Source: a virus
Strand: one strand, 5' to 3'
DNA: 64,000 bases
Virus record (IMG/VR): IMGVR_UViG_3300032288_005579
The notes beneath the pieces are model-generated. The model was given only the letters and a program-made list of their open reading frames with translations, searched no databases and had not been told where the DNA came from. Below, piece by piece: positions 1 through 12,017 of this stretch. Position numbers and translations under genes: made by a program. Positions within the stretch are counted from its first letter, which is position 1; each line of letters begins with the position of its first letter.

Positions 1-2
1 AG

Positions 3-548
3 TTCAAAGGGAGGATACGAATAGAAACAACAGAAGGAGGGTACCCAGCCCAAGCAAGACTCACAGGGAGCCTACGAGTAAGGACAGAACACGTACTGTT
101 CATGGACGCGGATACAATGCTACTCAACCCAGATACAATAGCACAGAGCCTAAGTAGGATGAGAGAGGGAGGATACCACCTACTGACAACGACAATAGAG
201 ACGGACAGACCCTACAGGTGGGTGTACAAGGCGTTCTACCTGTGCCAACTCCTGGCCAAACACGTACTCGGAACGAGCTTCGCGCCGGGAGGGTACCAAC
301 TCTGGAACACGGAAGCCTACTGGAACACGGGAGGTTGGAGGCCCGACGAGCTGTTCGCCGAGGACTACAGCATAAGCAAGAGGGTAGAACCGAAGAGGTT
401 CCGCGTAGAGGGGATCAAAGGGGTGTACACGTCCGCAAGGAGGTTCCGCAACAAGGGGGTGACCTACATGCTCAAGCTCATGGTCAAGTCCTACCTGCAC
501 CGCAACGACCCCGAGTTCTTCAAGAAGAGCCACGGCTACTGGGACTAG
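3..548 (+). CDS. Glycosyltransferase family 2 (GT-A), 5'-truncated by window edge
   Basis: Frame open from nt 3 (FKGRIRIETTEGGYPAQAR...HVLFMDAD); DxD motif, GGYQLW..EAYWNTGG and AEDYSIS typical of GT2. Confidence 0.8.
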   Translation, partial: FKGRIRIETTEGGYPAQARLTGSLRVRTEHVLFMDADTMLLNPDTIAQSLSRMREGGYHLLTTTIETDRPYRWVYKAFYLCQLLAKHVLGTSFAPGGYQLWNTEAYWNTGGWRPDELFAEDYSISKRVEPKRFRVEGIKGVYTSARRFRNKGVTYMLKLMVKSYLHRNDPEFFKKSHGYWD

Positions 549-814
549 CAAACGTATTGTTCGCAACTTGTTCGATTGTATGCAAGCGGAAGGCGGGCCG
601 GAGCAAACAGGGAGCGTGCGGAAATGAAGAGGTCCCTGGAGGGAGTGCGGAACCGGGAACGAGACTCTATAGGGGGGAATACTCCCGATTTGACAGTGTG
701 ACAAAGAGAAAAAGAATACTCGCGTACGCGCACAAATAGTTTCCCGACCGTCAACGAAGACTTTCGCAGTAGGAGGACATCGCGTACATTTACTTTAAGA
801 AAACCGAAACTCCA

Positions 815-1078
815 ATGGCAGACTACACCAACGGCGGCAAGATACGAGTGTCATCGAGCGCCGTACCCGAATCCAGACCCACCTACGAGGAGTGGATCCG
901 CATGTACAACATCAACGAGACCGCCTACCAAAACGACCCCGACGGGAGGGCCAAGGCGGAGAGGATCATGAATAAAGTTGGGATCCAGTACGACAACCGC
1001 ACGGTTTGGGAGATCGTGACGGGCACGATGGTGTCCGAGTCCAGGAATTTTGTGAAAAAAATCACAGACCAAGAATGA
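815..1078 (+). CDS. Hypothetical early protein
   Basis: 87 aa ORF, A-rich leader, TACATTTAC promoter-like box at 785-793. Confidence 0.65.
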   Translation: MADYTNGGKIRVSSSAVPESRPTYEEWIRMYNINETAYQNDPDGRAKAERIMNKVGIQYDNRTVWEIVTGTMVSESRNFVKKITDQE

Positions 1079-1141
1079 AGATTGTACTTTAGCAGCAGGA
1101 TTTAGTATATTACATACATGTTAAACAAACAAATACAAGTT

Positions 1142-1387
1142 ATGAAGACTACTTCAAATCGCCCCGAGAGCTACCAAAAACTGACTTACATTCAGAAAGT
1201 GGCCCGGATCAACCGCCGGTTTCGTACCGGTGACGTGTCTGCCATCGCAGAACAGGCTGGTTACTCCAGCACCCACGTCTCTGACGTGTTGAGTGGCAAG
1301 TACTTCAACGAGCGCCTTGTGAACCAAGCGTGGGACATCGCCCGCAACCGGATCAGCAACGCCGTGAAGCTCGACAAAGCCGCGTAA
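1142..1387 (+). CDS. Helix-turn-helix DNA-binding protein
   Basis: DVSAIAEQAGYSSTHVSDVLSG is an XRE/Cro-like HTH; CAAGTT-ATG leader at 1142. Confidence 0.7.
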   Translation: MKTTSNRPESYQKLTYIQKVARINRRFRTGDVSAIAEQAGYSSTHVSDVLSGKYFNERLVNQAWDIARNRISNAVKLDKAA

Positions 1388-1481
1388 GCAGCGTAACGGA
1401 AAAACCGCCCGGGATGGAGTTAACCTGGCGGTACCGGGCCGGCGGAAGGTGTAGGAGCCCCGCTGGCCACCCTAAGGGGAT

Positions 1482-1518
1482 GGGGAAGGCCATGTTGCCG
1501 GTACCCTCCCCTTTTTTT
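1482..1518 (+). terminator. Putative intrinsic terminator downstream of the HTH gene
   Basis: GGGGAAGG (1482-1489) pairs with CCCTCCCC (1504-1511, one mismatch), followed by a T7 tract. Confidence 0.5.
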
Positions 1519-1586
1519 ATTCCTGTTGGGTACCAAGCAGTTGCGCAACGCGCTGACCGCCAACGAGAAAGATTTGCGGGCCCCTA

Positions 1587-1618
1587 TGTCCGGATTCCGG
1601 CCTTTCGCGTATATTTAC
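1587..1618 (+). promoter_or_regulatory. Early-type promoter TGTCCG-N17-TATATTTAC
   Basis: Same -35 hexamer and 17-nt spacing recur at 19825-19856; lies just upstream of ATG 1641. Confidence 0.6.
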
Positions 1619-1640
1619 CCTGTAATTGAAGCTAGAGACT

Positions 1641-1928
1641 ATGGAAATCAAGATCACCATCAAGAACGCCTTAACCAAATTGACAGAGTTAGAGGTCGTA
1701 GCGCCGCTGCGGCCGGAGGAAAACGTGGACAACATCCACAGGATCCTGAGCGAGGGATATCCCGATTGTTTCGTGAATATCTCTGTGAGCGACGGCAGCT
1801 TCATCGCCGGCCAACCGTACAACATGGCGGCCGACGAGCGCCGCTTGGAGAAGGGCACCATAACCTGGCAGGGATACCTCGAGAAGTGGTACCCCAACCT
1901 GGCCGAGAACGCCGAAACCATCGACTGA
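1641..1928 (+). CDS. Hypothetical early protein
   Basis: 95 aa ORF directly after promoter, C/G-ending codon bias like neighbours. Confidence 0.7.
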   Translation: MEIKITIKNALTKLTELEVVAPLRPEENVDNIHRILSEGYPDCFVNISVSDGSFIAGQPYNMAADERRLEKGTITWQGYLEKWYPNLAENAETID

Positions 1929-1948
1929 GCAACCAACCCATTAGCTAT

Positions 1949-2209
1949 ATGACAACAGCACAACAGGAGTACGACAAGAGAAAGGACAACTACAGCACCA
2001 ACTGCGCCCGCATGGTGGGATTCTTCACCGCCTGCATGGACGTCTACGGACGGGAACTCATGAAGGAGAAGCCGGTGTGGACCGCACAGGAGATGGGCGA
2101 GAAGATGGTCAACATGGGCAAGCTGATCGACCTCTGGTTCGAGAAGCGGTACGAAGGCCCGTACATGAGCGCGGACATCGCCGCAATGCTCGAAGCACCG
2201 AAATCTTAA
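1949..2209 (+). CDS. Hypothetical early protein
   Basis: C-terminal part of ORF 1526..2209 from MTTAQQ; upstream part overlaps the real gene 1641..1928. Confidence 0.65.
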   Translation: MTTAQQEYDKRKDNYSTNCARMVGFFTACMDVYGRELMKEKPVWTAQEMGEKMVNMGKLIDLWFEKRYEGPYMSADIAAMLEAPKS

Positions 2210-2211
2210 AT

Positions 2212-2244
2212 TTTACTTTCAACCCTAAATCGTTTACATTACAT
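2212..2244 (+). promoter_or_regulatory. Sigma70-like early promoter TTTACT-N17-TACATT
   Basis: Near-identical to 5371-5399 (TTTACA-N17-TACATT, both with AAATCGT before the -10). Confidence 0.65.
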
Positions 2245-2257
2245 CTAAATAAAGGTT

Positions 2258-3061
2258 ATGACAAACAAACTCAATCCCCAAACAATCACTTCGCTCAGCC
2301 TCGAGGAGGCAGCTAAGCGCGCGCCCGCTATCATGGCCACCCGGCCTGCGGACTACATCAACCTCAACAGGTACAAGTTCACACCCACCACAGAGGTCAT
2401 CGACCACATGCAGGACCTCGGTTACGTGTTGACCGGTGCCAAGCAGAGCAAGACCAGCGTGCCGCTCCGCCGCGACTTCGGTACCCACATCGTCACCTTC
2501 CAACACCCTAAGCTGTACATCAAGGACAGCGAGGGCGGAGTGGAGGCGAGGCCTACCATCGTAGTACTGAACAGCCACGACGGCAGCCGCCCGATCCAAT
2601 TCGAGATGGGCATGTTCCGCCTCGTCTGCTCGAACGGCCTCATGGTCAAGACGCAGGACTTCGGCAGCATCCGCGAACGCCACACCAAGTACACCTTCCC
2701 GCAACTGAAGGAGCTCGTAGACAGCAAGATCAGTGCCTTACCCAAGGTAGTAGAGAAGATCAACGACTGGAGCAGCAAGGTAATGACACCTAAGGAGCAA
2801 TCCCAGTTCGCCATCGATGCACTGCTCATGCGGTTGGGCGACGATCGCCAGCCCGAGAACTACGAGATCCAGTCCATCCTCACACCCAAGAGGGACGCCG
2901 ACAAGGGCAACAGCCTGTGGAAGACCTTCAACGTGGTGCAGGAGAACCTGATCAAGGGCGGCTTCGACCTCAACGAGCGCGTAGCACGCGGCATAACCAA
3001 CCCCGTGCAGGACATGGTCCTCAACCAGGACCTGTGGCAGCTCGCGGAGAAGTACGCCTAA
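2258..3061 (+). CDS. DUF932/DUF945 phage/plasmid-like protein
   Basis: APAIMA, NSHDGS..FEMGMFRLVCSNGL, SLWKTFNVVQENLIKGG, LNQDLW motifs. Confidence 0.85.
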   Translation: MTNKLNPQTITSLSLEEAAKRAPAIMATRPADYINLNRYKFTPTTEVIDHMQDLGYVLTGAKQSKTSVPLRRDFGTHIVTFQHPKLYIKDSEGGVEARPTIVVLNSHDGSRPIQFEMGMFRLVCSNGLMVKTQDFGSIRERHTKYTFPQLKELVDSKISALPKVVEKINDWSSKVMTPKEQSQFAIDALLMRLGDDRQPENYEIQSILTPKRDADKGNSLWKTFNVVQENLIKGGFDLNERVARGITNPVQDMVLNQDLWQLAEKYA

Positions 3062-3076
3062 GCGTGGCTGCGGTGG

Positions 3077-3161
3077 ACCGCTAGCGGTGCGTTAGCGGTT
3101 CACTAGCGGTCGCTAGCGAATCACTAGCAAGTGCTAGCGCAACACTAGCACCGAACTAGCG
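3077..3161. repeat. Intergenic array of eight (C/T)TAGC units with 10-11 nt period
   Basis: Units start at 3081, 3092 (TTAGC), 3103, 3113, 3124, 3134, 3145, 3156. Confidence 0.9.
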
Positions 3162-3289
3162 CCCCGCCAAAGGAACAATTGTTGTAGACAGGGGGCCCTA
3201 AGGGGGGGCCTGCCTCGCTTAATCAAACTCGCCAACATTGGAAAATTTTTAACAGGAAAAACGTATTTATGAATATACACCCAAAGACT

Positions 3290-3412
3290 ATGAAAACCAA
3301 ACAGAACAAACCAAAGACCAAACTCGGTTCGATCATCGCCAACCACATCGCACTGATCAACGAAGCCACCAAAGGCACCCAGGACGCATCGAAAAAATCC
3401 AAAGGCGAATGA
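3290..3412 (+). CDS. Small basic hypothetical protein (40 aa)
   Basis: MKTKQNKPKTKLGSIIANH..., A-rich leader, stop overlaps next start (ATGA). Confidence 0.45.
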   Translation: MKTKQNKPKTKLGSIIANHIALINEATKGTQDASKKSKGE

Positions 3413-3588
3413 ACGACCTGACGACTAAGGAACTGATGGAGCTCAGGTGGGTGATCGAGGAATACGTACCGGTGAAGTCAGACTTGCTTCGCGAGACGCT
3501 CCTCAAGATCGACGCCCAATTGGAGAAGGAGGGGTACGTGTTGGAGCTCAGGGCGTTTCAGTCGGAGTGGAAGATAAGCAAAAAGTAA
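3409..3588 (+). CDS. Small hypothetical protein (59 aa)
   Basis: MNDLTTKELMELRWVIEEYV..., ATGA coupling to the previous ORF. Confidence 0.55.
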   Translation: MNDLTTKELMELRWVIEEYVPVKSDLLRETLLKIDAQLEKEGYVLELRAFQSEWKISKK

Positions 3589-3592
3589 CGGT

Positions 3593-3814
3593 ATGCAAAA
3601 CGCAATGGACTTCGCTTTCTACTTCGGCCTGGTGGCCGTGATCATGGGCTTTCTATCGTGGGCGTGGGTGAACGGCATAGACCGTGCGATGCGCGACTTT
3701 CCCGACTACCGCGGAGAGGACCTGCTCGACGAGTTTCCAGCCCGGGAAAAAGGCACCGAAACCGCAAAAACGCACGGGCAGGCAGGGGAAAAACCGGGCG
3801 CAGACAAACAGTAA
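3593..3814 (+). CDS. Small membrane protein
   Basis: Hydrophobic segment FAFYFGLVAVIMGFLSWAWV. Confidence 0.55.
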   Translation: MQNAMDFAFYFGLVAVIMGFLSWAWVNGIDRAMRDFPDYRGEDLLDEFPAREKGTETAKTHGQAGEKPGADKQ

Positions 3815-3824
3815 ACACACGTAC

Positions 3825-4061
3825 ATGAATACGATCAACAGGATAGACACACCGATCAGACAGCTGATGGAGCGAGTGAACGCAGCGGCCAGGTGGGCTC
3901 GCAGCGACGACGATAGGCACGTGCTTGGCCTTGTGGCCGAAGAGTGCGAAAAGCTCTTGCACACGGAGCGCGAGCACATCGAAGGGGCGTGGCGCGACGG
4001 CCAGTCCGGGGTCACGAACCAATCAGGCGCACAGTACTACGATAAAACATACGGCAAATGA
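3825..4061 (+). CDS. Hypothetical protein
   Basis: From MNTINRIDTP; C-terminal EREHIEGAWRDG...QYYDKTYG resembles common small phage ORFs. Confidence 0.6.
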   Translation: MNTINRIDTPIRQLMERVNAAARWARSDDDRHVLGLVAEECEKLLHTEREHIEGAWRDGQSGVTNQSGAQYYDKTYGK

Positions 4062-4334
4062 GGTACGTTGAGGTTTTTTTGGGTGTAGCGTTTTCGCTCA
4101 TAGCGCTTGGCTGCTGTGCGGCCCTTGTGTTCGCTGTTGTGGCCGATCTTTTCGGTTGGTACGATAAACCCAAGAAGCCGTGATGCACCTCATAGAACTT
4201 CTAGCGCAGGTGGCGGTTTTCGCCGTGCTTGCGTTCGTCTGCCTCGGTGCATTCATGTGCATATACGTGTTCGTGTTCCTGCCCTTTGTGTGGATCACTT
4301 CGTGGGTATTTTCTAGGATCAAACGCATGCTGCA

Positions 4335-4883
4335 GTGAAACGCATAACGCCAGAAGAGACGAAGTACTACGTGCGCCTCACGCGCAACGAACACAACTGG
4401 CACGGTAAGGCCGTCGCCTACACGATGCTTCCCAGCTCCGACCCAGTTAGGGCAGCGGAAGGATGGGAGGACCTCGAGTACTACATGGAGGGCATACTCG
4501 ATCCGAGTTACTCTTCCAAACCGCCCGAGTGGGTGTACGTGTTGGTCAACAAGGGGGTACCCGGCATCTGCAAGATCGGCATGACCACCACTTCCGTACC
4601 GCAGCGCGTGCGTGAGATCAACTCCGCGACGGGCGTGATAACGCCGTGGTTCGCGGTGTACCAGTACAAGTGCATCAATTCCTACGCTCTAGAACAGGCT
4701 GTGCACCAACACTTCGAGGACTTGGGTTACAGGGTCAACCCGAACCGGGAAGGCTTCGAGATACCGAGCGACATGGCGATACAGATCATCGAGGCGTTGG
4801 GAGAGAGGCTTACCGTGCACCCTCAAGAGTTCGGTGGCGCACAGCCGCAGGGAGAAACTTCCGATCTGACCGGGTCCGAGTGA
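4335..4883 (+). CDS. T5orf172/MUG113-type GIY-YIG domain protein
   Basis: WVYVL..KIGMTT..RVREINSATGV...LEQAVHQHF...NREGF. Confidence 0.85.
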   Translation: MKRITPEETKYYVRLTRNEHNWHGKAVAYTMLPSSDPVRAAEGWEDLEYYMEGILDPSYSSKPPEWVYVLVNKGVPGICKIGMTTTSVPQRVREINSATGVITPWFAVYQYKCINSYALEQAVHQHFEDLGYRVNPNREGFEIPSDMAIQIIEALGERLTVHPQEFGGAQPQGETSDLTGSE

Positions 4884-5356
4884 TGGGTCTGCGCGTAGAT
4901 AAGTTGGGTCCCCACAACGCGGCTACCGCCCTGCGGTTGGCGACCAAGGTAGTGTCCTCTCTCAGGGGCATCTACTCGAAAGAGGCTATCGCGGGCGAGA
5001 TCGAACCTCTCAACTGGTCAAGGCTGCACAACCCCGATTACTTGGACTTGGTCCTGTTTAGGGACTCGCGCTGCGTCGGCTTCTGCTTCTGCGAGATCGA
5101 AGGCGGTGTGGCCTTCCTGCGTTGGTTGGGCGTCGAGCCCGCCGAACTGGGCACGGGCGCCGCTCGCTACCTTTTCGAGGATTTATTGCGCAAGTGCCGG
5201 AACTTGGGCGTTCGCAAGGTCTGGTTCGACACCAATGCGGCCAACGTTAGGGCCATCAATTTCTTCGAGTCGTACGGGTGCGCTAAGTTCGGGACCGTGG
5301 AAGACTTCTGGTACGGGCACAGCTACCACTTCTGGGAAAAGAGATTAAGCGAATGA
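4883..5356 (+). CDS. GNAT family N-acetyltransferase
   Basis: LRWLGVEP.ELGTGAARYLF acetyl-CoA motif A; N.RAINFFESYG motif B; TGATG coupling. Confidence 0.85.
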   Translation: MGLRVDKLGPHNAATALRLATKVVSSLRGIYSKEAIAGEIEPLNWSRLHNPDYLDLVLFRDSRCVGFCFCEIEGGVAFLRWLGVEPAELGTGAARYLFEDLLRKCRNLGVRKVWFDTNAANVRAINFFESYGCAKFGTVEDFWYGHSYHFWEKRLSE

Positions 5357-5370
5357 CCGAAAACGAATAG

Positions 5371-5404
5371 TTTACATTTCTCATAAAAATCGTTACATTT
5401 ACAG
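5371..5404 (+). promoter_or_regulatory. Sigma70-like early promoter TTTACA-N17-TACATT
   Basis: Twin of 2212-2244. Confidence 0.65.
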
Positions 5405-5432
5405 TATGTTAAACAAAACCAAAACAAACGCA

Positions 5433-5567
5433 ATGAAAAAAATTGTAATCGCGCTGGCCCTGGCATTCGCCGCGGCAGCGTGCACACCGAAGGCGACCGA
5501 AGGCGCCAACGATTCCACAGCTGTGAGCGTGGACACCGTTAAAGTTGACACCGTAAACGCACAGTGA
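5433..5567 (+). CDS. Small lipoprotein (44 aa), Bacteroidota PG1828-like
   Basis: MKKIVIALALAFAAAAC lipobox then DSTAVSVDTVKVDTV tail. Confidence 0.7.
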   Translation: MKKIVIALALAFAAAACTPKATEGANDSTAVSVDTVKVDTVNAQ

Positions 5568-5569
5568 TC

Positions 5570-5731
5570 ATGAACCAACAGTACGCAATAGTCACAGCTA
5601 CGAACGTGGCCGAGCTCGAGAAGCAGGTCACCGCTAGGTTGTCGAAGGGGTGGGAACTGGCGGGATCGCTGGTCTACGTCGCAGAAAGCGGGCAGTTTAT
5701 CCAACCGCTGGTCTACAAACCGAAAGAGTAA
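5570..5731 (+). CDS. DUF1737-like small protein (53 aa)
   Basis: YAIVTA..ELEKQVTARLSKGWELAGSL...FIQPLV. Confidence 0.7.
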   Translation: MNQQYAIVTATNVAELEKQVTARLSKGWELAGSLVYVAESGQFIQPLVYKPKE

Positions 5732-5737
5732 TCGAGC

Positions 5738-5983
5738 ATGAGAAAGCGTTACGAAGAGAACCCCCTGACCAAACAGCCCGGGGGCGCCACACTGGTATTC
5801 ACGTTCAACGATCGGCCAACAGAGGTTCGAAGGAACGTCAAGGTCCCGAAGCGTTACGTTGAAACCGTCTTGGACACGTTGGTTACAGAGAACAGCGTAT
5901 CGTCGTTGGTATCTGTGTACAACAAGTCCGACGACCGTTACGAGTACGTTCGTCAACAACCCGACGTATCATCGCAGTTGTGA
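5738..5983 (+). CDS. Hypothetical protein
   Basis: 81 aa ORF in tightly packed operon. Confidence 0.6.
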   Translation: MRKRYEENPLTKQPGGATLVFTFNDRPTEVRRNVKVPKRYVETVLDTLVTENSVSSLVSVYNKSDDRYEYVRQQPDVSSQL

Positions 5984-6216
5984 ACTCGTCGCTATTCGCG
6001 GAGAACCTCGTTCTGAAGTCGAAGGAAGCGTTGCAGGGTTCCGTCAAGGACGGGACCGACCTGCACGCCCTCGCAGTACAAGAGTGCCTTGCTTTTTGTG
6101 AACTCACGCTTCGCGTGATAAATGCAAACTGTGGGGGCACTCGAGTACCGGGGTTCGAAGAGGTGTCATTTTGGGAAAAAGTTACCAACGAAATCAAGAA
6201 CCGTGAACGACGCTAG
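5980..6216 (+). CDS. Hypothetical protein
   Basis: GTGA coupling to previous ORF. Confidence 0.55.
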   Translation: MNSSLFAENLVLKSKEALQGSVKDGTDLHALAVQECLAFCELTLRVINANCGGTRVPGFEEVSFWEKVTNEIKNRERR

Positions 6217-6840: not shown

Positions 6841-7104
6841 ATGGCAGAATTCAGCAAACAATACGTAGAAAATTACATGCGCGATTTTGAGAGTTGGGAC
6901 TTCGATCTCGATGCGGAGTTTTCCAAACTATCTCCGGGTCAGTACGAACCCATGATATGCGAGGGTTTCGGCTTCATCGCGATCATAAAACAGTTGGACG
7001 GATCTCTCATGTGTCTGTACAAGAATCACAAGACTGGGGAATTCAAGGAAGTGACGTACGAGTCTCTGACCGATACAACTCACGAAGACATCTGGACAGA
7101 GTGA
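6841..7104 (+). CDS. Hypothetical protein
   Basis: 87 aa ORF immediately before tRNA. Confidence 0.65.
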   Translation: MAEFSKQYVENYMRDFESWDFDLDAEFSKLSPGQYEPMICEGFGFIAIIKQLDGSLMCLYKNHKTGEFKEVTYESLTDTTHEDIWTE

Positions 7105-7110
7105 GTGGAT

Positions 7111-7196
7111 GCCTGGATGGCGGAACAGGTATACGCGCAAGACTTAAAATTTTGTGGGCAGTAATGCTCGTACGGGTTCGATTCCCGTTCCAGGTA
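7111..7196 (+). tRNA. trnL: tRNA-Leu(TAA)
   Basis: GCCTGGA/TCCAGGT acceptor, CAAGA-CTTAAAA-TTTTG anticodon arm, long variable arm, GGTTCGATTCC T arm. Confidence 0.92.
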
Positions 7197-7214
7197 CAAC
7201 GATAATTATATAGG

Positions 7215-7850
7215 ATGGCAACACCTTACAAAATACAATACGACACGACGCTCTATCCCTTTAGAGAGGTTATAAAGAGCGTTTTAAACGAGTCTTCGTT
7301 AGAGAAGCTTCACGAAAAACAGTCTTACGAACTGTTCGAAGTGGCTAAAGAGTCTAAGACCGTTTGGCACCCCATGTATTACACTAAGTACGAGCAGGAA
7401 ATTTATCCGCTATACAAGCAGTTCTTGCAAGAGGTAATCAAACCCCACTTTCAATTCTCTTCTATGGTGTATCAAAAGATTCCCACTTTCAGGATACACC
7501 TTCACGGAAACGTGGGAGTGGGAGGTTGGCACAAGGATCGCGATTACAACCACACACAGGGCGAGATCAACTGTTGGTTGCCGTTTACAGACACCTACGG
7601 TACGAACACCATATGGATGGAATCGGAAGAGGACAAAGGCGATTACAAACCCTACGACGTGAAGTACGGAGAGGTTTTGATATTCGACGGCGTTAACTTG
7701 TATCACGGTAACAAAACAAACGAAGAGGACTCTACGCGTGTATCTTTCGATTTTAGGGTCGTAGAAGAGGGCAAATTCAATCCTTCAAAAAAGAGCAGCG
7801 TGGTAAACTCTGTTCAATTCACTATAGGAAGTTATTTCGAAAAAATGTAA
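7215..7850 (+). CDS. 2OG-Fe(II)/cupin-type oxygenase-like protein
   Basis: WHKD (HxD), distal YHGN and RVSFDFR motifs of the double-stranded beta-helix dioxygenase fold. Confidence 0.7.
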   Translation: MATPYKIQYDTTLYPFREVIKSVLNESSLEKLHEKQSYELFEVAKESKTVWHPMYYTKYEQEIYPLYKQFLQEVIKPHFQFSSMVYQKIPTFRIHLHGNVGVGGWHKDRDYNHTQGEINCWLPFTDTYGTNTIWMESEEDKGDYKPYDVKYGEVLIFDGVNLYHGNKTNEEDSTRVSFDFRVVEEGKFNPSKKSSVVNSVQFTIGSYFEKM

Positions 7851-7958
7851 AAACACAATAGTTATGAAAACGTTAGCAATATACTTGATCATCGCTGTCG
7901 TAGCATCGGCGCTGATAATTACTTTTAATCACAATGCTACTGATAAGCTCGATAAAGA

Positions 7959-8669
7959 ATGAAGACCGTCGTCGTGGGCGATATTCACGGTCGCACCGTT
8001 TGGAAGGAAATCTTCCACAAAGAATGGGACGCGGACCGTGTTGTATTCGTAGGTGACTACTTCGATTCTTTCGACATTCCAGGCATAGACCAACTCAGGA
8101 ACTTCGAGGACATAATCAAGTTCAAGAAGGAATCGGGTAAAGACGTCGTGATGCTCATCGGCAACCACGATCTGCACTATTTCCCGGAGATCGGGTACAC
8201 AGGCACAAGCGGGTTTCAAAGGAACATGTACACTTCGATAAGCAACGCTATCAACGAGAACCGCCAACACCTGCAGATGTGTTACGCTCAGGACGGTTTC
8301 CTGTTCTCGCACGCAGGCATCAGCACAAAGTGGCTGAAGCGTGTTTTCAAGAAGGCGTGGAACGTGAACAACGTGGTAGAAAAGGTGAACGAACTTTTCG
8401 CAACCAAACCGAGATGGTTCAACTTTCCCGACCACTGCTTCGATCCGTACGGTGACAACGTAGACCAGACTCCGGTGTGGATCAGACCGCGCAGTTTGAA
8501 GATCGCGAACAACAACACGAACCTGTACAGGAAATACATTCAAGTCGTAGGTCACACCCACAGGAACGGAATAGAATTCAGCGGTCGTACATACTTTGTG
8601 GATACCTTCGATACAGGAAACGAATACTTGACTATTGTCGACGGAAAGGTTATATTAGCATCATTATGA
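7959..8669 (+). CDS. Calcineurin-like metallophosphoesterase
   Basis: GDIHG, GDYFD, GNHD, SHAG, VGHT motifs. Confidence 0.92.
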   Translation: MKTVVVGDIHGRTVWKEIFHKEWDADRVVFVGDYFDSFDIPGIDQLRNFEDIIKFKKESGKDVVMLIGNHDLHYFPEIGYTGTSGFQRNMYTSISNAINENRQHLQMCYAQDGFLFSHAGISTKWLKRVFKKAWNVNNVVEKVNELFATKPRWFNFPDHCFDPYGDNVDQTPVWIRPRSLKIANNNTNLYRKYIQVVGHTHRNGIEFSGRTYFVDTFDTGNEYLTIVDGKVILASL

Positions 8670-9049
8670 GCGAATTCAAAATAGACTTCTTTGAGCTGGC
8701 TTTCTTAGCGGAAGCCTGCATTCCACCGAGGCCCATCGCTAGAACCATGTTTTGGCACAACCTCACCGAAAGGTATTGGCACCATATGACCGAAGGGGAG
8801 AGGGCGCACCTGTTCGAGTGGTTGAACAAGAACGAAACATTCAAAGAAAGCTTGGAGAACAACGCAGACACGCAGGTCTTTCATGCAAGGTTCGATCCAG
8901 AAAACCAGTACTTGGTTTCAAACGACGACGCGGAAGAGAAGGTGCGAGCGTTCAAAATGGGGGATCGCTACTACGTCGGAATCAATCGATGGATAGCGGA
9001 GGAGTATATAACGGCTGTAGAAAAGTTTGTACCTAAAAGAGAGTATTGA
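8666..9049 (+). CDS. Hypothetical protein
   Basis: From MSEFKIDFFEL; ATGA overlap with the phosphoesterase stop. Confidence 0.7.
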   Translation: MSEFKIDFFELAFLAEACIPPRPIARTMFWHNLTERYWHHMTEGERAHLFEWLNKNETFKESLENNADTQVFHARFDPENQYLVSNDDAEEKVRAFKMGDRYYVGINRWIAEEYITAVEKFVPKREY

Positions 9050-9050
9050 T

Positions 9051-9383
9051 ATGAAATACGAAGACTTTGAAAAGGTCCTGTCGATGATGAACGAACAGGA
9101 CTCGAAGGTGCACCAGTTGTACAAGAACAAGATCGACATAGCGGAGTTCTTGGACCCGTACCACGCTATAATAACCATGCTCTTCAAAGAAATTTACGGG
9201 GAACATGGCTACGATTGGATAAGTTGGTTCGTTTACGAGAATGGATTTGGTTACGCTGGATTGGAGGCGTACGACGAAAACAAGAACCTGATATGCCAGG
9301 ACGTTAAGGGACTTTGGGAATACATAGAAAAAAATCACTCATGGAAAAAGAAAAACCCCGTAGGTTCACGTATTCAACCGTAG
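9051..9383 (+). CDS. Hypothetical protein
   Basis: From MKYEDFEK; 110 aa. Confidence 0.65.
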   Translation: MKYEDFEKVLSMMNEQDSKVHQLYKNKIDIAEFLDPYHAIITMLFKEIYGEHGYDWISWFVYENGFGYAGLEAYDENKNLICQDVKGLWEYIEKNHSWKKKNPVGSRIQP

Positions 9384-9760
9384 GTTACGGGGTGATGACT
9401 TTGCTCGGAGAGAGGTACCGAATGGGTCGCATAGAGATCTTCGATAGGGAAGACGACTCAGGTTACCAAGTTTCCGAGGGAGTATACTGCATGCCGTTCG
9501 GAGCGGCGACGAAGTTCGAGGACTTCATCGAGTCCCTAGAAACGGATTTGCCCATTCACATTGACATGGGATCACACGAGTGGTGCGCGGAAGAGTGTGC
9601 TAAAGATTTGGGATTAGGTAGCGCAGAGGATCTTAGGGATCCCGAAAAGGTGGCGCAATACAGAAAGAAGGAGAACGACGAATACGCGAAGGAGCGTGGC
9701 TACAAAGATTGGGAAGATCTCGTAAACAATACCGAATGGATGAAAAACAACAAACTATGA
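9341..9760 (+). CDS. Hypothetical protein
   Basis: From MEKEKPRRF. Confidence 0.6.
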   Translation: MEKEKPRRFTYSTVGYGVMTLLGERYRMGRIEIFDREDDSGYQVSEGVYCMPFGAATKFEDFIESLETDLPIHIDMGSHEWCAEECAKDLGLGSAEDLRDPEKVAQYRKKENDEYAKERGYKDWEDLVNNTEWMKNNKL

Positions 9761-10008
9761 AACAGACAGCACTACAACAACTCATAGCATGGGGTGATGA
9801 AAAGTTAAAAAATGAACCAATGAAACACCTCTCGTTTGCTGAAGTGATCGATAAAGCTGAAGAACTTTTGGAGGTGGAGAAAGAACAGATGAAGCTTATG
9901 TTTGATTGCGGAAGGCAGTATCAATTGACTGGAGAAGGAACATTCACACAGGTTCACAACGAAATATACAACAATGAGATTCACACAACAAAAGACACTG
10001 AAGGATAA
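9757..10008 (+). CDS. Hypothetical protein
   Basis: MKQTALQQLI...EVEKEQM...YN, common small phage ORF type. Confidence 0.65.
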   Translation: MKQTALQQLIAWGDEKLKNEPMKHLSFAEVIDKAEELLEVEKEQMKLMFDCGRQYQLTGEGTFTQVHNEIYNNEIHTTKDTEG

Positions 10009-10183
10009 TTACATTAAGGGTGTCACAAAAGTTGATGTTATGTTCCTATGGTGGCCCGCAACTATTGACGGAGAAACCCGATGGTTGGAACTGGCCACGA
10101 TTGAATACAAAGTCGATTTTGAAGACACTGCATTTTTCGGTCGGATATATAAATGGATTCCTTGGAATTTTTTAAACCAATAA
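9974..10183 (+). CDS. Hypothetical protein
   Basis: 69 aa; FLWWPATIDGETRWLE motif. Confidence 0.55.
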   Translation: MRFTQQKTLKDNYIKGVTKVDVMFLWWPATIDGETRWLELATIEYKVDFEDTAFFGRIYKWIPWNFLNQ

Positions 10184-10188
10184 GTGTC

Positions 10189-10581
10189 ATGAAAGCGAGC
10201 GATGTTCAGGAAGGCGGAAGCCACTACAAGCGTTACGTCATACAACCCACAGAGTTCATATTCAAGAACGGTTTGGGTTTCATAGAGGGTAACGTGATCA
10301 AGTACGTGATGCGTCACAGGGAAAAGAACGGAAAGCACGACCTTCTCAAAGCCAAACACTACATAGACCTTTTGTTGGAATACGAATACCCAGATAAAGA
10401 AGCCCCAGTGTTGGAATCGGTAGACATCAAAGACTTAGGATCTTTGGCTGAAAAGCGTGGGGGTTCGAGTCCCTCCTGGGGTACGGATAATTTTTCGAAG
10501 TCGTTGGAAGAGATGATTAAAGAAGTTCCCAACGATTTCACCTTAGGCAAGAAGGTCAGAGAGAAGTACGGAAAACACTAA
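10189..10581 (+). CDS. DUF3310 (SaV-like) protein whose reading frame runs through a tRNA
   Basis: GGSHYK..IQPTEFI..GFIEGNVIKYVMRHREKNGKHDLLKAKHYIDLL; AACCAATAAGTGTC-ATG leader. Confidence 0.8.
   Translation: MKASDVQEGGSHYKRYVIQPTEFIFKNGLGFIEGNVIKYVMRHREKNGKHDLLKAKHYIDLLLEYEYPDKEAPVLESVDIKDLGSLAEKRGGSSPSWGTDNFSKSLEEMIKEVPNDFTLGKKVREKYGKH
10402..10483 (+). tRNA. trnL: tRNA-Leu(TAG), nested in CDS 10189..10581
   Basis: GCCCCAG/CTGGGGT acceptor, AAAGA-CTTAGGA-TCTTT anticodon arm, variable arm GC-TGAAAA-GC, GGGGG-TTCGAGT-CCCTC T arm. Confidence 0.85.
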
Positions 10582-10587
10582 CAACAC

Positions 10588-10660
10588 AGCCATGTGGCGC
10601 AACGGTCAGCGCAGGACTCTTATACAGTCAAGGTTGTTGGTTCAAATCCAGCCGTGGCTA
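10588..10660 (+). tRNA. trnI: tRNA-Ile(TAT)
   Basis: AGCCATG/CGTGGCT acceptor, GCGC D stem, loop CTTATAC, GTTGG-TTCAAAT-CCAGC T arm. Confidence 0.85.
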
Positions 10661-10665
10661 CAAAC

Positions 10666-10739
10666 GGTCTCATAGCTCAATCGGATAGAGCAACTGCCTT
10701 CTAAGCAGTAGGTTTCGCGTTCGAGTCGCGATGGGATCA
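10666..10739 (+). tRNA. trnR: tRNA-Arg(TCT)
   Basis: GGTCTCA/TGGGATC acceptor, ACTGC-CTTCTAA-GCAGT anticodon arm. Confidence 0.93.
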
Positions 10740-10753
10740 CTAAATTTTATCAT

Positions 10754-10909
10754 ATGAAAAGGATATTGTTCTTGTGCATGTTTTTATTGTCCTCCTGTGT
10801 TGTAGAATACAAGGTAGTAAGCGACGAGTGTAGATCTCTAAAAAATAGAGGTTCAGAGGACGACGATGATTTACGGGTAGTAAAAGTTTACAAGATTAAA
10901 ATCAAGTGA
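10754..10909 (+). CDS. Small putative lipoprotein (51 aa)
   Basis: MKRILFLCMFLLSSC lipobox-like signal. Confidence 0.5.
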   Translation: MKRILFLCMFLLSSCVVEYKVVSDECRSLKNRGSEDDDDLRVVKVYKIKIK

Positions 10910-10946
10910 TACGTATCATATTTATGGGTAAGATGACAGACACATT

Positions 10947-11144
10947 ATGAAAATCAATAACTATAAAGATCTCATCCTAGTGTTTTCTTCACTCATGATG
11001 TTGCTGTTAGCATTGGAAGTTATGATGCTTAGAAATAATATCTCAGACTTGGAAAAAGAAAGATACAAATTAAGCAATAAATTAGAACATTGTAGAACGT
11101 ACCAATTTTACGATTTAAGCGTAAGAGGTACAATAGAGAAGTAA
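10947..11144 (+). CDS. Small membrane-anchored protein
   Basis: N-terminal hydrophobic helix, ATATTTAT box at 10918. Confidence 0.55.
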   Translation: MKINNYKDLILVFSSLMMLLLALEVMMLRNNISDLEKERYKLSNKLEHCRTYQFYDLSVRGTIEK

Positions 11145-11217
11145 GCCTCCTTAGCTCAGCTGATAGAGCATCTGATTTGTACTCAGAAAGTCGTGGGTTT
11201 GAATCCTACAGGAGGCT
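11145..11217 (+). tRNA. trnT: tRNA-Thr(TGT)
   Basis: GCCTCCT/AGGAGGC acceptor, TCTGA-TTTGTAC-TCAGA anticodon arm. Confidence 0.92.
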
Positions 11218-11221
11218 CAGA

Positions 11222-11293
11222 GGTCGATTCGTCTAACGGTTAGGACGTCAGATTTTCATTCTGATAATAGGGGTTCGATTCCCCTATCGACTA
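11222..11293 (+). tRNA. trnE: tRNA-Glu(TTC)
   Basis: GGTCGAT/ATCGACT acceptor, TCAGA-TTTTCAT-TCTGA anticodon arm, AGGGG-TTCGATT-CCCCT. Confidence 0.92.
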
Positions 11294-11332
11294 CAACACC
11301 GCTGTTCTTTGACATATAGGAGAAAACAAACC

Positions 11333-11740
11333 ATGGAACAATTACTATTTTTTGGTCTGGGCGTGGTCACGGTCACAGCGTTAGCTTTGATTGTGGGTGC
11401 GGTTAGGCTACAGAAGCAAGTCGTGAATCTGCAACACGAGATGAAAAGTTTGCAGAAACAAGCAGAGAACCAAGAAAGATACTTCGAAGACAGGTTTAGA
11501 ATTCTTGAAGAGGTATCAAATACTGTAGATAGGCGGATAGACGCGGAGACTCGAGAGCTGTACAGCACCATCGATTCCAGATTCGACAAACTGGACAATC
11601 GATTGGGTCGAGATCTTGATGATATCAGCAGAGAATCACAAGCTATGTATTCCGCTATTGAAAGACGCATCGATGAAACTTTGCTGTCTGTTGATGTAGC
11701 GGAGTTGAAGTCGAAAAATAAATCTATCACTAATAATTAA
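11333..11740 (+). CDS. Membrane-anchored coiled-coil protein
   Basis: N-terminal TM (LLFFGLGVVTVTALALIVGAV) then heptad-rich helix. Confidence 0.7.
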   Translation: MEQLLFFGLGVVTVTALALIVGAVRLQKQVVNLQHEMKSLQKQAENQERYFEDRFRILEEVSNTVDRRIDAETRELYSTIDSRFDKLDNRLGRDLDDISRESQAMYSAIERRIDETLLSVDVAELKSKNKSITNN

Positions 11741-11792
11741 AACAGTCTAAGGGGCGGCGGTGTTTTTTATTCTCCTCTCACATATTTATACA

Positions 11793-12017
11793 ATGCCAAA
11801 TAAAAAGTCTATGAAAGAAATTAGGAACGCAAAAGTAGAACAGATTAAAAAGATGCTCGTTGGTGCGATCATCGAGTCGGTTGAACCTACTAAAAATAAC
11901 AACGGTTTACGCATAAGAACGAGGTCTTTTATTCGAACAGGGGATTACTATAAGGCGGATGTGAACGTAGAATACGAGAACGATAAGGGTTGCATAAACG
12001 TAACCTTTACTGAATGA
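11793..12017 (+). CDS. Hypothetical protein
   Basis: Starts 4 nt after ATATTTAT box (11782-11789). Confidence 0.6.
   Translation: MPNKKSMKEIRNAKVEQIKKMLVGAIIESVEPTKNNNGLRIRTRSFIRTGDYYKADVNVEYENDKGCINVTFTE

Follow-up and report, generated by a model that had tools for sequence, protein, structure and literature searches.

A leucine tRNA gene set in frame between a DUF3310 gene and a PND-motif micro-protein module in one phage lineage

In Escherichia coli, the tufB and secG-leuU operons give co-transcripts of tRNA and mRNA that are processed by RNase P and RNase E. A word search of the literature on overlaps between phage tRNAs and open reading frames brought up nothing specific. In Alphaproteobacteria, the gene for tRNA-Sec, selC, is nested in the selB open reading frame (Mukai 2021, Int J Mol Sci 22:4605, PMC8124441). 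There, processing of the tRNA is hypothesized to create a non-stop mRNA, so that the tRNA and the full-length protein are alternative products (PMC8124441).

Here, we consider a phage locus with the same kind of nesting. The window, i.e., the whole stretch of 64,000 nucleotides that was analysed, corresponds to bases 95372-159371 of an IMG/VR virus record of 183,411 bp that is rated as complete. The frame of interest sits in a same-strand series of small genes that runs into a tRNA cluster, and it consists of a DUF3310 core, a tRNA-Leu(UAG) and a module with a PND motif (Table 1). All three parts are real and lie in one reading frame, in a layout found in this lineage only. Judged from sequence comparison, two gene families are fused across the tRNA, and the identity assigned to the tail is new here. 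The base composition of this one phage genome is strongly heterogeneous, with a GC content of 54-56% in positions 1-6000 of the window and 35-41% in the structural-gene region (30000-58000).

Table 1. Positions of the open frame, its parts and the neighbouring tRNAs in the window, with examples of PND loci in the coordinates of their own contigs
Feature	Position	Strand	Remark
Whole open frame (DUF3310 + tRNA + PND module)	10189..10581	+	130 codons
DUF3310 body (MKASD...LLEYEY) and four tail codons (PDKE)	10189..10401	+	own stop absent
tRNA-Leu(UAG)	10402-10483	+	ARAGORN, Rfam; class II, discriminator A73, 27 codons in the frame of the ORF
TGG codon in 3' acceptor strand	10477..10479	+	partner C4 at 10405
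PND-motif module	10483..10581	+	32 codons and TAA 10579-10581; phmmer, motif pattern, alignment
11-bp inverted repeat	10497-10507 / 10529-10539	.	inside tail; encloses TTG 10504 and ATG 10513
tRNA-Leu(UAA)	7111		ARAGORN/Rfam
tRNA-Ile(UAU)	10588-10660	+	begins 6 nt past ORF stop
tRNA-Arg(UCU)	10666-10739	+	tRNA cluster
tRNA-Thr(UGU)	11145		tRNA cluster
tRNA-Glu(UUC)	11222		tRNA cluster
PND example ORF, L206	2470-2607	-
PND example ORF, L179	4806-4943	-
PND example ORF, L216	948-1145	+
PND and DUF3310-like gene, L278	2039-2447	+
PND and DUF3310-like gene, L206	762-2607	-

The original prediction, made from the letters of the sequence, was that the frame has no stop codon before, within or after the tRNA. 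The list of open reading frames, taken together with ARAGORN and Rfam, bears this out: the plus-strand frame is open, and the complete tRNA lies inside it. The translations quoted with the prediction agree with the list. The longest form of the frame, 10153..10581, has 142 amino acids. Two things favour ATG 10189 as the start, which gives a protein of 130 amino acids: MKASD is where the homologues begin, and the gene before it has its end at 10183. The tRNA is in phase with this start, its first base falling on a codon boundary (10402-10189 = 213), and of the three sense frames of the tRNA only one is open, namely the one shared with DUF3310 and the PND module. The locus shares what characterizes nesting of the selB/selC type: the sense-strand tRNA lies wholly within an ORF that has no stop ahead of the tRNA or inside it. 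By chance, frames often stay open across a tRNA: of 18 tRNAs sampled, 13 are open in one sense frame or more, and 6 lie in frames of at least 80 codons. A real gene that lacks its stop, in contrast, is not ordinary. The 142-aa protein occurs in two near-identical contigs only, among about 15 billion proteins. In its AF2 model, pLDDT is 82-94 over the DUF3310 core and below 50 over the whole extension. An ORF across tRNA-Leu(UAA), 6894..7205, was rejected as a comparable case, because it is off-frame and the called gene stops at 7104.

The tRNA is called as tRNA-Leu(tag) at 10402-10484 by ARAGORN, and the Rfam model RF00005 covers 10402-10483 over its full length (1-71) with 43.3 bits against a gathering threshold of 29, while the five neighbouring tRNAs score higher, 55-66 bits. 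It has the anticodon loop CUUAGGA (U33, UAG, G37) and a long variable arm, and CCA is not encoded. The discriminator A73 is an identity element for LeuRS. The cloverleaf had been described as nearly intact with one mismatch in the D stem, in agreement with cmscan, which flags U10.U25 as the sole non-standard pair. The same pair is present in the copies in contigs L083 and L296, and is hence typical of the family rather than a sign of decay. When the tRNA is compared with the L083 copy, 80 of 83 positions are identical, as against 80% of the adjoining DUF3310 DNA and 60% of its third codon positions. One compensated acceptor pair (C4:G69 versus U4:A69) and one base in the variable loop account for the three differences. 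When the more distant copy in L003 is included, there is compensatory change at 10 stem pairs among the three homologues. By these sequence comparisons, the tRNA-Leu(UAG) is shown to be real and under purifying selection. The minimum free energy fold of the tRNA alone gives no cloverleaf, which for a tRNA is uninformative. Exact and degenerate searches for the tRNA-Leu(UAG) found nothing in IMG/VR or in metagenome contigs. The copy in L296 encodes CCA and begins 1 nt past the stop of a metallophosphatase gene.

The clustered tRNAs (7111-11294) all have U34 anticodons for A-ending codons (6/6), and in none of the six is CCA encoded. The phage favours such codons: ATA accounts for 59% of the Ile codons in long ORFs, AGA for 47% of the Arg codons and CTA for 15% of the Leu codons. 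The tRNA-Leu(UAG) fits this phage tRNA set for A-ending codons. Between tRNA-Arg and tRNA-Thr (10754-11144) there are two small ORFs, one with a lipoprotein-type signal (MKRILFLCMFLLSSC) and the other with a single transmembrane helix; a homologous transmembrane ORF is found at the same spot in L003. When positions 9000-12000 were compared by blastn with 50,697 phage records, the tRNAs alone matched, and a scan for sigma-70 promoters and terminators gave fewer sites than in shuffled sequence.

The first part of the frame matches Pfam PF11753 with 41.7 bits (cut-off 24) over residues 22-72 of the 142-aa form, and the residues that are invariant in the family, 19 columns in an alignment of 60 DUF3310 sequences, are present. 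There are 336 homologues. The comparison covered 80 loci from IMG/VR and 80 from metagenomes that carry DUF3310 relatives, together with the contigs of the closest proteins. The 163 complete ORFs among these relatives end a median of 7 residues past the position of EYEY, the longest tail having 43 residues, and none of them overlaps a tRNA or has lost its stop. All relatives thus keep a stop shortly after LLEYEY, the comparison with orthologs that the original prediction had singled out, and the window is alone in being without one. Conservation of the overlap in diverged relatives, as in the case of selB and selC, is likewise seen in 0/163. The closest relatives (83-91% amino acid identity; L002, L083, L088, L089, L293, L296, L297/298) end with GSEYER[TS] or similar, followed by the stop. 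In at least eight close relatives, where the contig reaches that far, DUF3310 is followed by a TGA stop, a spacer of about 100 nt and then tRNA-Ile(UAU), with a hydrophobic ORF of 35-41 amino acids ahead of the tRNA. To this spacer, the segment from EYEY to tRNA-Ile in the window has no nucleotide similarity. Furthermore, tRNA-Leu(UAG) lies downstream of tRNA-Ile in L083, L296 and L003, but upstream of it in the window, where the order is Leu-Ile-Arg.

DUF3310 proteins in general tolerate varied N- and C-terminal additions. P0002, a protein of 153 amino acids with 85% query coverage, was rejected as a second read-through, since it is a tandem duplication of the DUF3310 domain. Two homologues from other metagenomes, P0013 and P0026, have N-terminal extensions that are the translated 3' half of an upstream tRNA (..GSSPAAAT.. 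and ..GSNPVLTT..). Extensions of this type are a common annotation artefact beside tRNA clusters.

The 32 residues that follow the tRNA had been noted as a protein-like tail, and they turn out to belong to a separate family of small proteins with a PND motif, as seen by phmmer, pattern search and alignment. When they were searched exhaustively with phmmer against 1.84e9 proteins, P0121 (E = 7e-5) and P0122 (E = 1e-3) were found, each with two copies of hh.KE.PND..LGK.hR. The tail has what defines the module, P-N-D-x-x-L-G-K-K-h-R after an amphipathic helix, and its flanking residues outside the motif have a PSSM score in the top 0.6% of random windows. The best match is an ORF of 45 amino acids in L206, where residues 2-27 align to residues 2-27 with 61.5% identity over 26 amino acids. 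In this register, the position of the family's Met1 is taken by ACG 10483-10485, the A of which is the discriminator base of the tRNA. The two in-frame start codons further down, TTG 10504 and ATG 10513, would truncate helix 1, with 8 and 5 residues, respectively, ahead of the Pro of the motif, and the minimum in the family is 10, among the matches listed. There is, in other words, no start codon of the tail's own at least 10 residues before the Pro. From the register with L206, the ACG at Met1 and the too short forms from the internal starts follows that the tail is a whole PND module without its start.

In the DUF3310 frame, the codon usage of the tail scores 0.262, compared with a coding mean of 0.258, which is above 99.3% of stop-free off-frame windows, although the test is weak, the tRNA part having by chance a fairly high score too (0.213). 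The segment 10485-10587, which contains the inverted repeat of Table 1, folds with z = -2.13, and 3 of 200 shuffled sequences fold as well. The tail has no Pfam or PHROG family and no relatives in DUF3310 loci or elsewhere in the phage genome, and a comparison by shared words with proteins of 30-228 amino acids gave no close homologue.

The motif, h..hhKE.PND.ELGKKhR..Y, defines a phage micro-protein module that is widespread and unannotated, being absent from both Pfam and PHROGs. The degenerate DNA pattern for PND..LGKK.R matches at least 120 IMG/VR contigs (L172-L291), compared with one for the reversed control. All of the 120 matches listed lie in open frames with the same amphipathic helix upstream, and the median protein length among them is 55 amino acids. 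The module can stand alone as a protein, be repeated in tandem (P0121, P0122) or be attached to other proteins at either terminus. None of the 120 matches listed lies in an ORF within 400 nt of a tRNA, and a pattern with a tRNA T-arm followed by the PND motif gave no matches.

We regard the three-part in-frame fusion as probably a recent, lineage-specific and tolerated by-product, and it is no proven regulatory device. The ancestral layout would have been DUF3310, a TGA stop, the small hydrophobic ORF and tRNA-Ile, with tRNA-Leu(UAG) further downstream. A rearrangement at the cluster's upstream edge would then have swapped the stretch from the DUF3310 core to tRNA-Ile for one in which a micro-gene with the PND motif comes immediately after tRNA-Leu(UAG). 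With the single open frame of the tRNA in phase with both neighbours, DUF3310 would from then on run through to the TAA at 10579. That a rearrangement at the cluster edge produced the layout is inferred from the gene orders: since tRNA-Leu comes after tRNA-Ile in the relatives, the order Leu-Ile-Arg in the window is by parsimony the derived one, the direction of the rearrangement being set by parsimony over fragmentary contigs. In the original prediction, the fusion of two ORFs across the tRNA was ascribed to loss of a stop codon. The fusion itself stands, as relatives keep the stop and the tail comes from a separate family, but instead of a point loss, replacement of the segment and relocation of tRNA-Leu look likelier.

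What would be made from such a transcript depends on processing. Transcripts that escape it would be translated to a DUF3310-linker-PND protein of 130 amino acids. When RNase P and 3' processing free the tRNA, a stop-less DUF3310 message that ends after GAA 10399-10401 would be left, together with a PND fragment without a start, and tmRNA would be expected to rescue the stop-less message. That maturation of the tRNA could regulate or diversify the protein, the other part of the original prediction, is mechanistically reasonable, and the idea has been put forward for selB and selC (PMC8124441).

From this mechanism arises the strongest of the alternatives, in which the cloverleaf and the frame are both maintained by selection, so that the tRNA-Leu gene doubles as a linker between DUF3310 and PND, and the competition between read-through and RNase P sets the ratio of tRNA to protein. 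To this we give a clearly smaller, though not negligible, chance. The PND module, whose motif and codon usage are intact, can be translated as a whole only via the tRNA, since ACG stands at Met1 and TTG and ATG cut helix 1. The tRNA and 2 nt add up to 84 nt, and thus form an in-frame insert between PDKE and DNFSK. The window has TGG where L083 (2919-3001) and L296 (1431-1515), the closest tRNA alleles, have TGA and a closed frame (..SPS*G), and this difference is one compensated pair in the acceptor stem, with C4:G69 in the window and U4:A69 in L083 and L296. However, the outgroup L003 also has C4:G69, so that TGG may simply be ancestral. Nor is the chance that one open tRNA frame agrees in phase at two junctions small, about 1 in 9.

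The known habits of the PND module weigh on both sides of dual use. PND modules are natural C-terminal appendages on other phage proteins (L174, L208, L228, L180), the N-terminal domain of L174 having been considered as a DUF3310 and rejected as not detectable (hhalign probability 0.6%). A same-strand DUF3310 ORF is present in 59 of the 120 PND loci listed and in 15 of their 43 non-redundant groups. Elsewhere, however, PND is upstream of DUF3310 and not downstream: the DUF3310 ORF almost always follows the PND gene, and overlaps its stop in 10 of the loci listed. Since a large share of these loci seem to come from a single broad group of phages, the shared order may be inherited synteny, and the proximity of PND and DUF3310 could reflect either a functional link or synteny inherited in one large phage group. 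A DUF3310-PND fusion without tRNA was not found, and no listed PND ORF contains DUF3310. In the AF2 model, the docking of the tail on the core is not confident. Even though selB and selC provide a published precedent (PMC8124441), the layout is here confined to one lineage with two near-identical contigs, and that no diverged relative has it argues against a long-maintained device and for the by-product that we favour.

It is still less probable, and in our view improbable, that the long ORF is an annotation artefact over three independent genes, with DUF3310 made from a stop-less mRNA or by unstable read-through, and PND started from TTG 10504, ATG 10513 or a TTG or GTG inside the tRNA. In-frame alternative starts do exist, gene callers often extend ORFs into tRNAs, as for P0013 and P0026, tRNA-spanning ORFs are common, and on the minus strand a 63-aa ORF also spans this tRNA. 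Against this, there is no stop between the parts, so that ribosomes on unprocessed RNA must read through, and the internal starts leave too few residues before the PND motif for any family member among the matches listed. A chimeric join or an indel that removed the stop can be dismissed as highly improbable, because, even though the contig is metagenome-assembled, two precise joins around an intact tRNA would be required, and a second assembly (ENA ERZ28594320 scaffold_7; 186,914 bp against 183,411 bp) carries the same frame and differs in one base of 8,429 (at 10102), i.e., elsewhere in the 8.4 kb compared, which makes a local assembly error unlikely.

If the fusion is an accident, as we consider more likely, it is a clean snapshot of how fused genes and genes without a stop arise when tRNA clusters are shuffled, and it should make annotators wary. 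If the frame is instead kept by selection, phage DNA would here serve as both tRNA and protein code, and the locus would be a simple system for the competition between translation and tRNA processing on one transcript, so far proposed only for selB and selC. In either case, the tail has exposed a large unannotated PND family that often sits in the DUF3310 gene cluster, which gives a testable link between two families of unknown function.

When the locus is compared with known systems, the tail is like P0121, P0122 and the ORFs in L206, L179 and L216 in that helix, PND turn and LGKKhR helix occur in register, but family members have an ATG of their own and usually 10-25 more C-terminal residues, whereas the tail has ACG and ends 6 residues past the Arg. 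As in the tufB and secG-leuU operons, tRNAs and ORFs would share a transcript and be parted by processing, and the tRNA 1 nt past a gene stop in L296 is of the same kind; in those operons, unlike in the phage locus, there is a stop codon before the tRNA. The likeness to selB and selC goes further, since in both cases a whole sense-strand tRNA lies in the ORF just past the last conserved domain, the C-terminal extension is translated tRNA, and the proposed outcome of processing is either tRNA or full-length protein. The nesting of selC in selB, in contrast, is conserved across many genera, and its tRNA and protein belong to the same pathway. The selB stop overlaps the start of the next ORF, while the phage ORF stops 6 nt before another tRNA. 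The phage locus, finally, is found in one lineage, has a general elongator tRNA and, unlike selB, continues after the tRNA into a second protein module.
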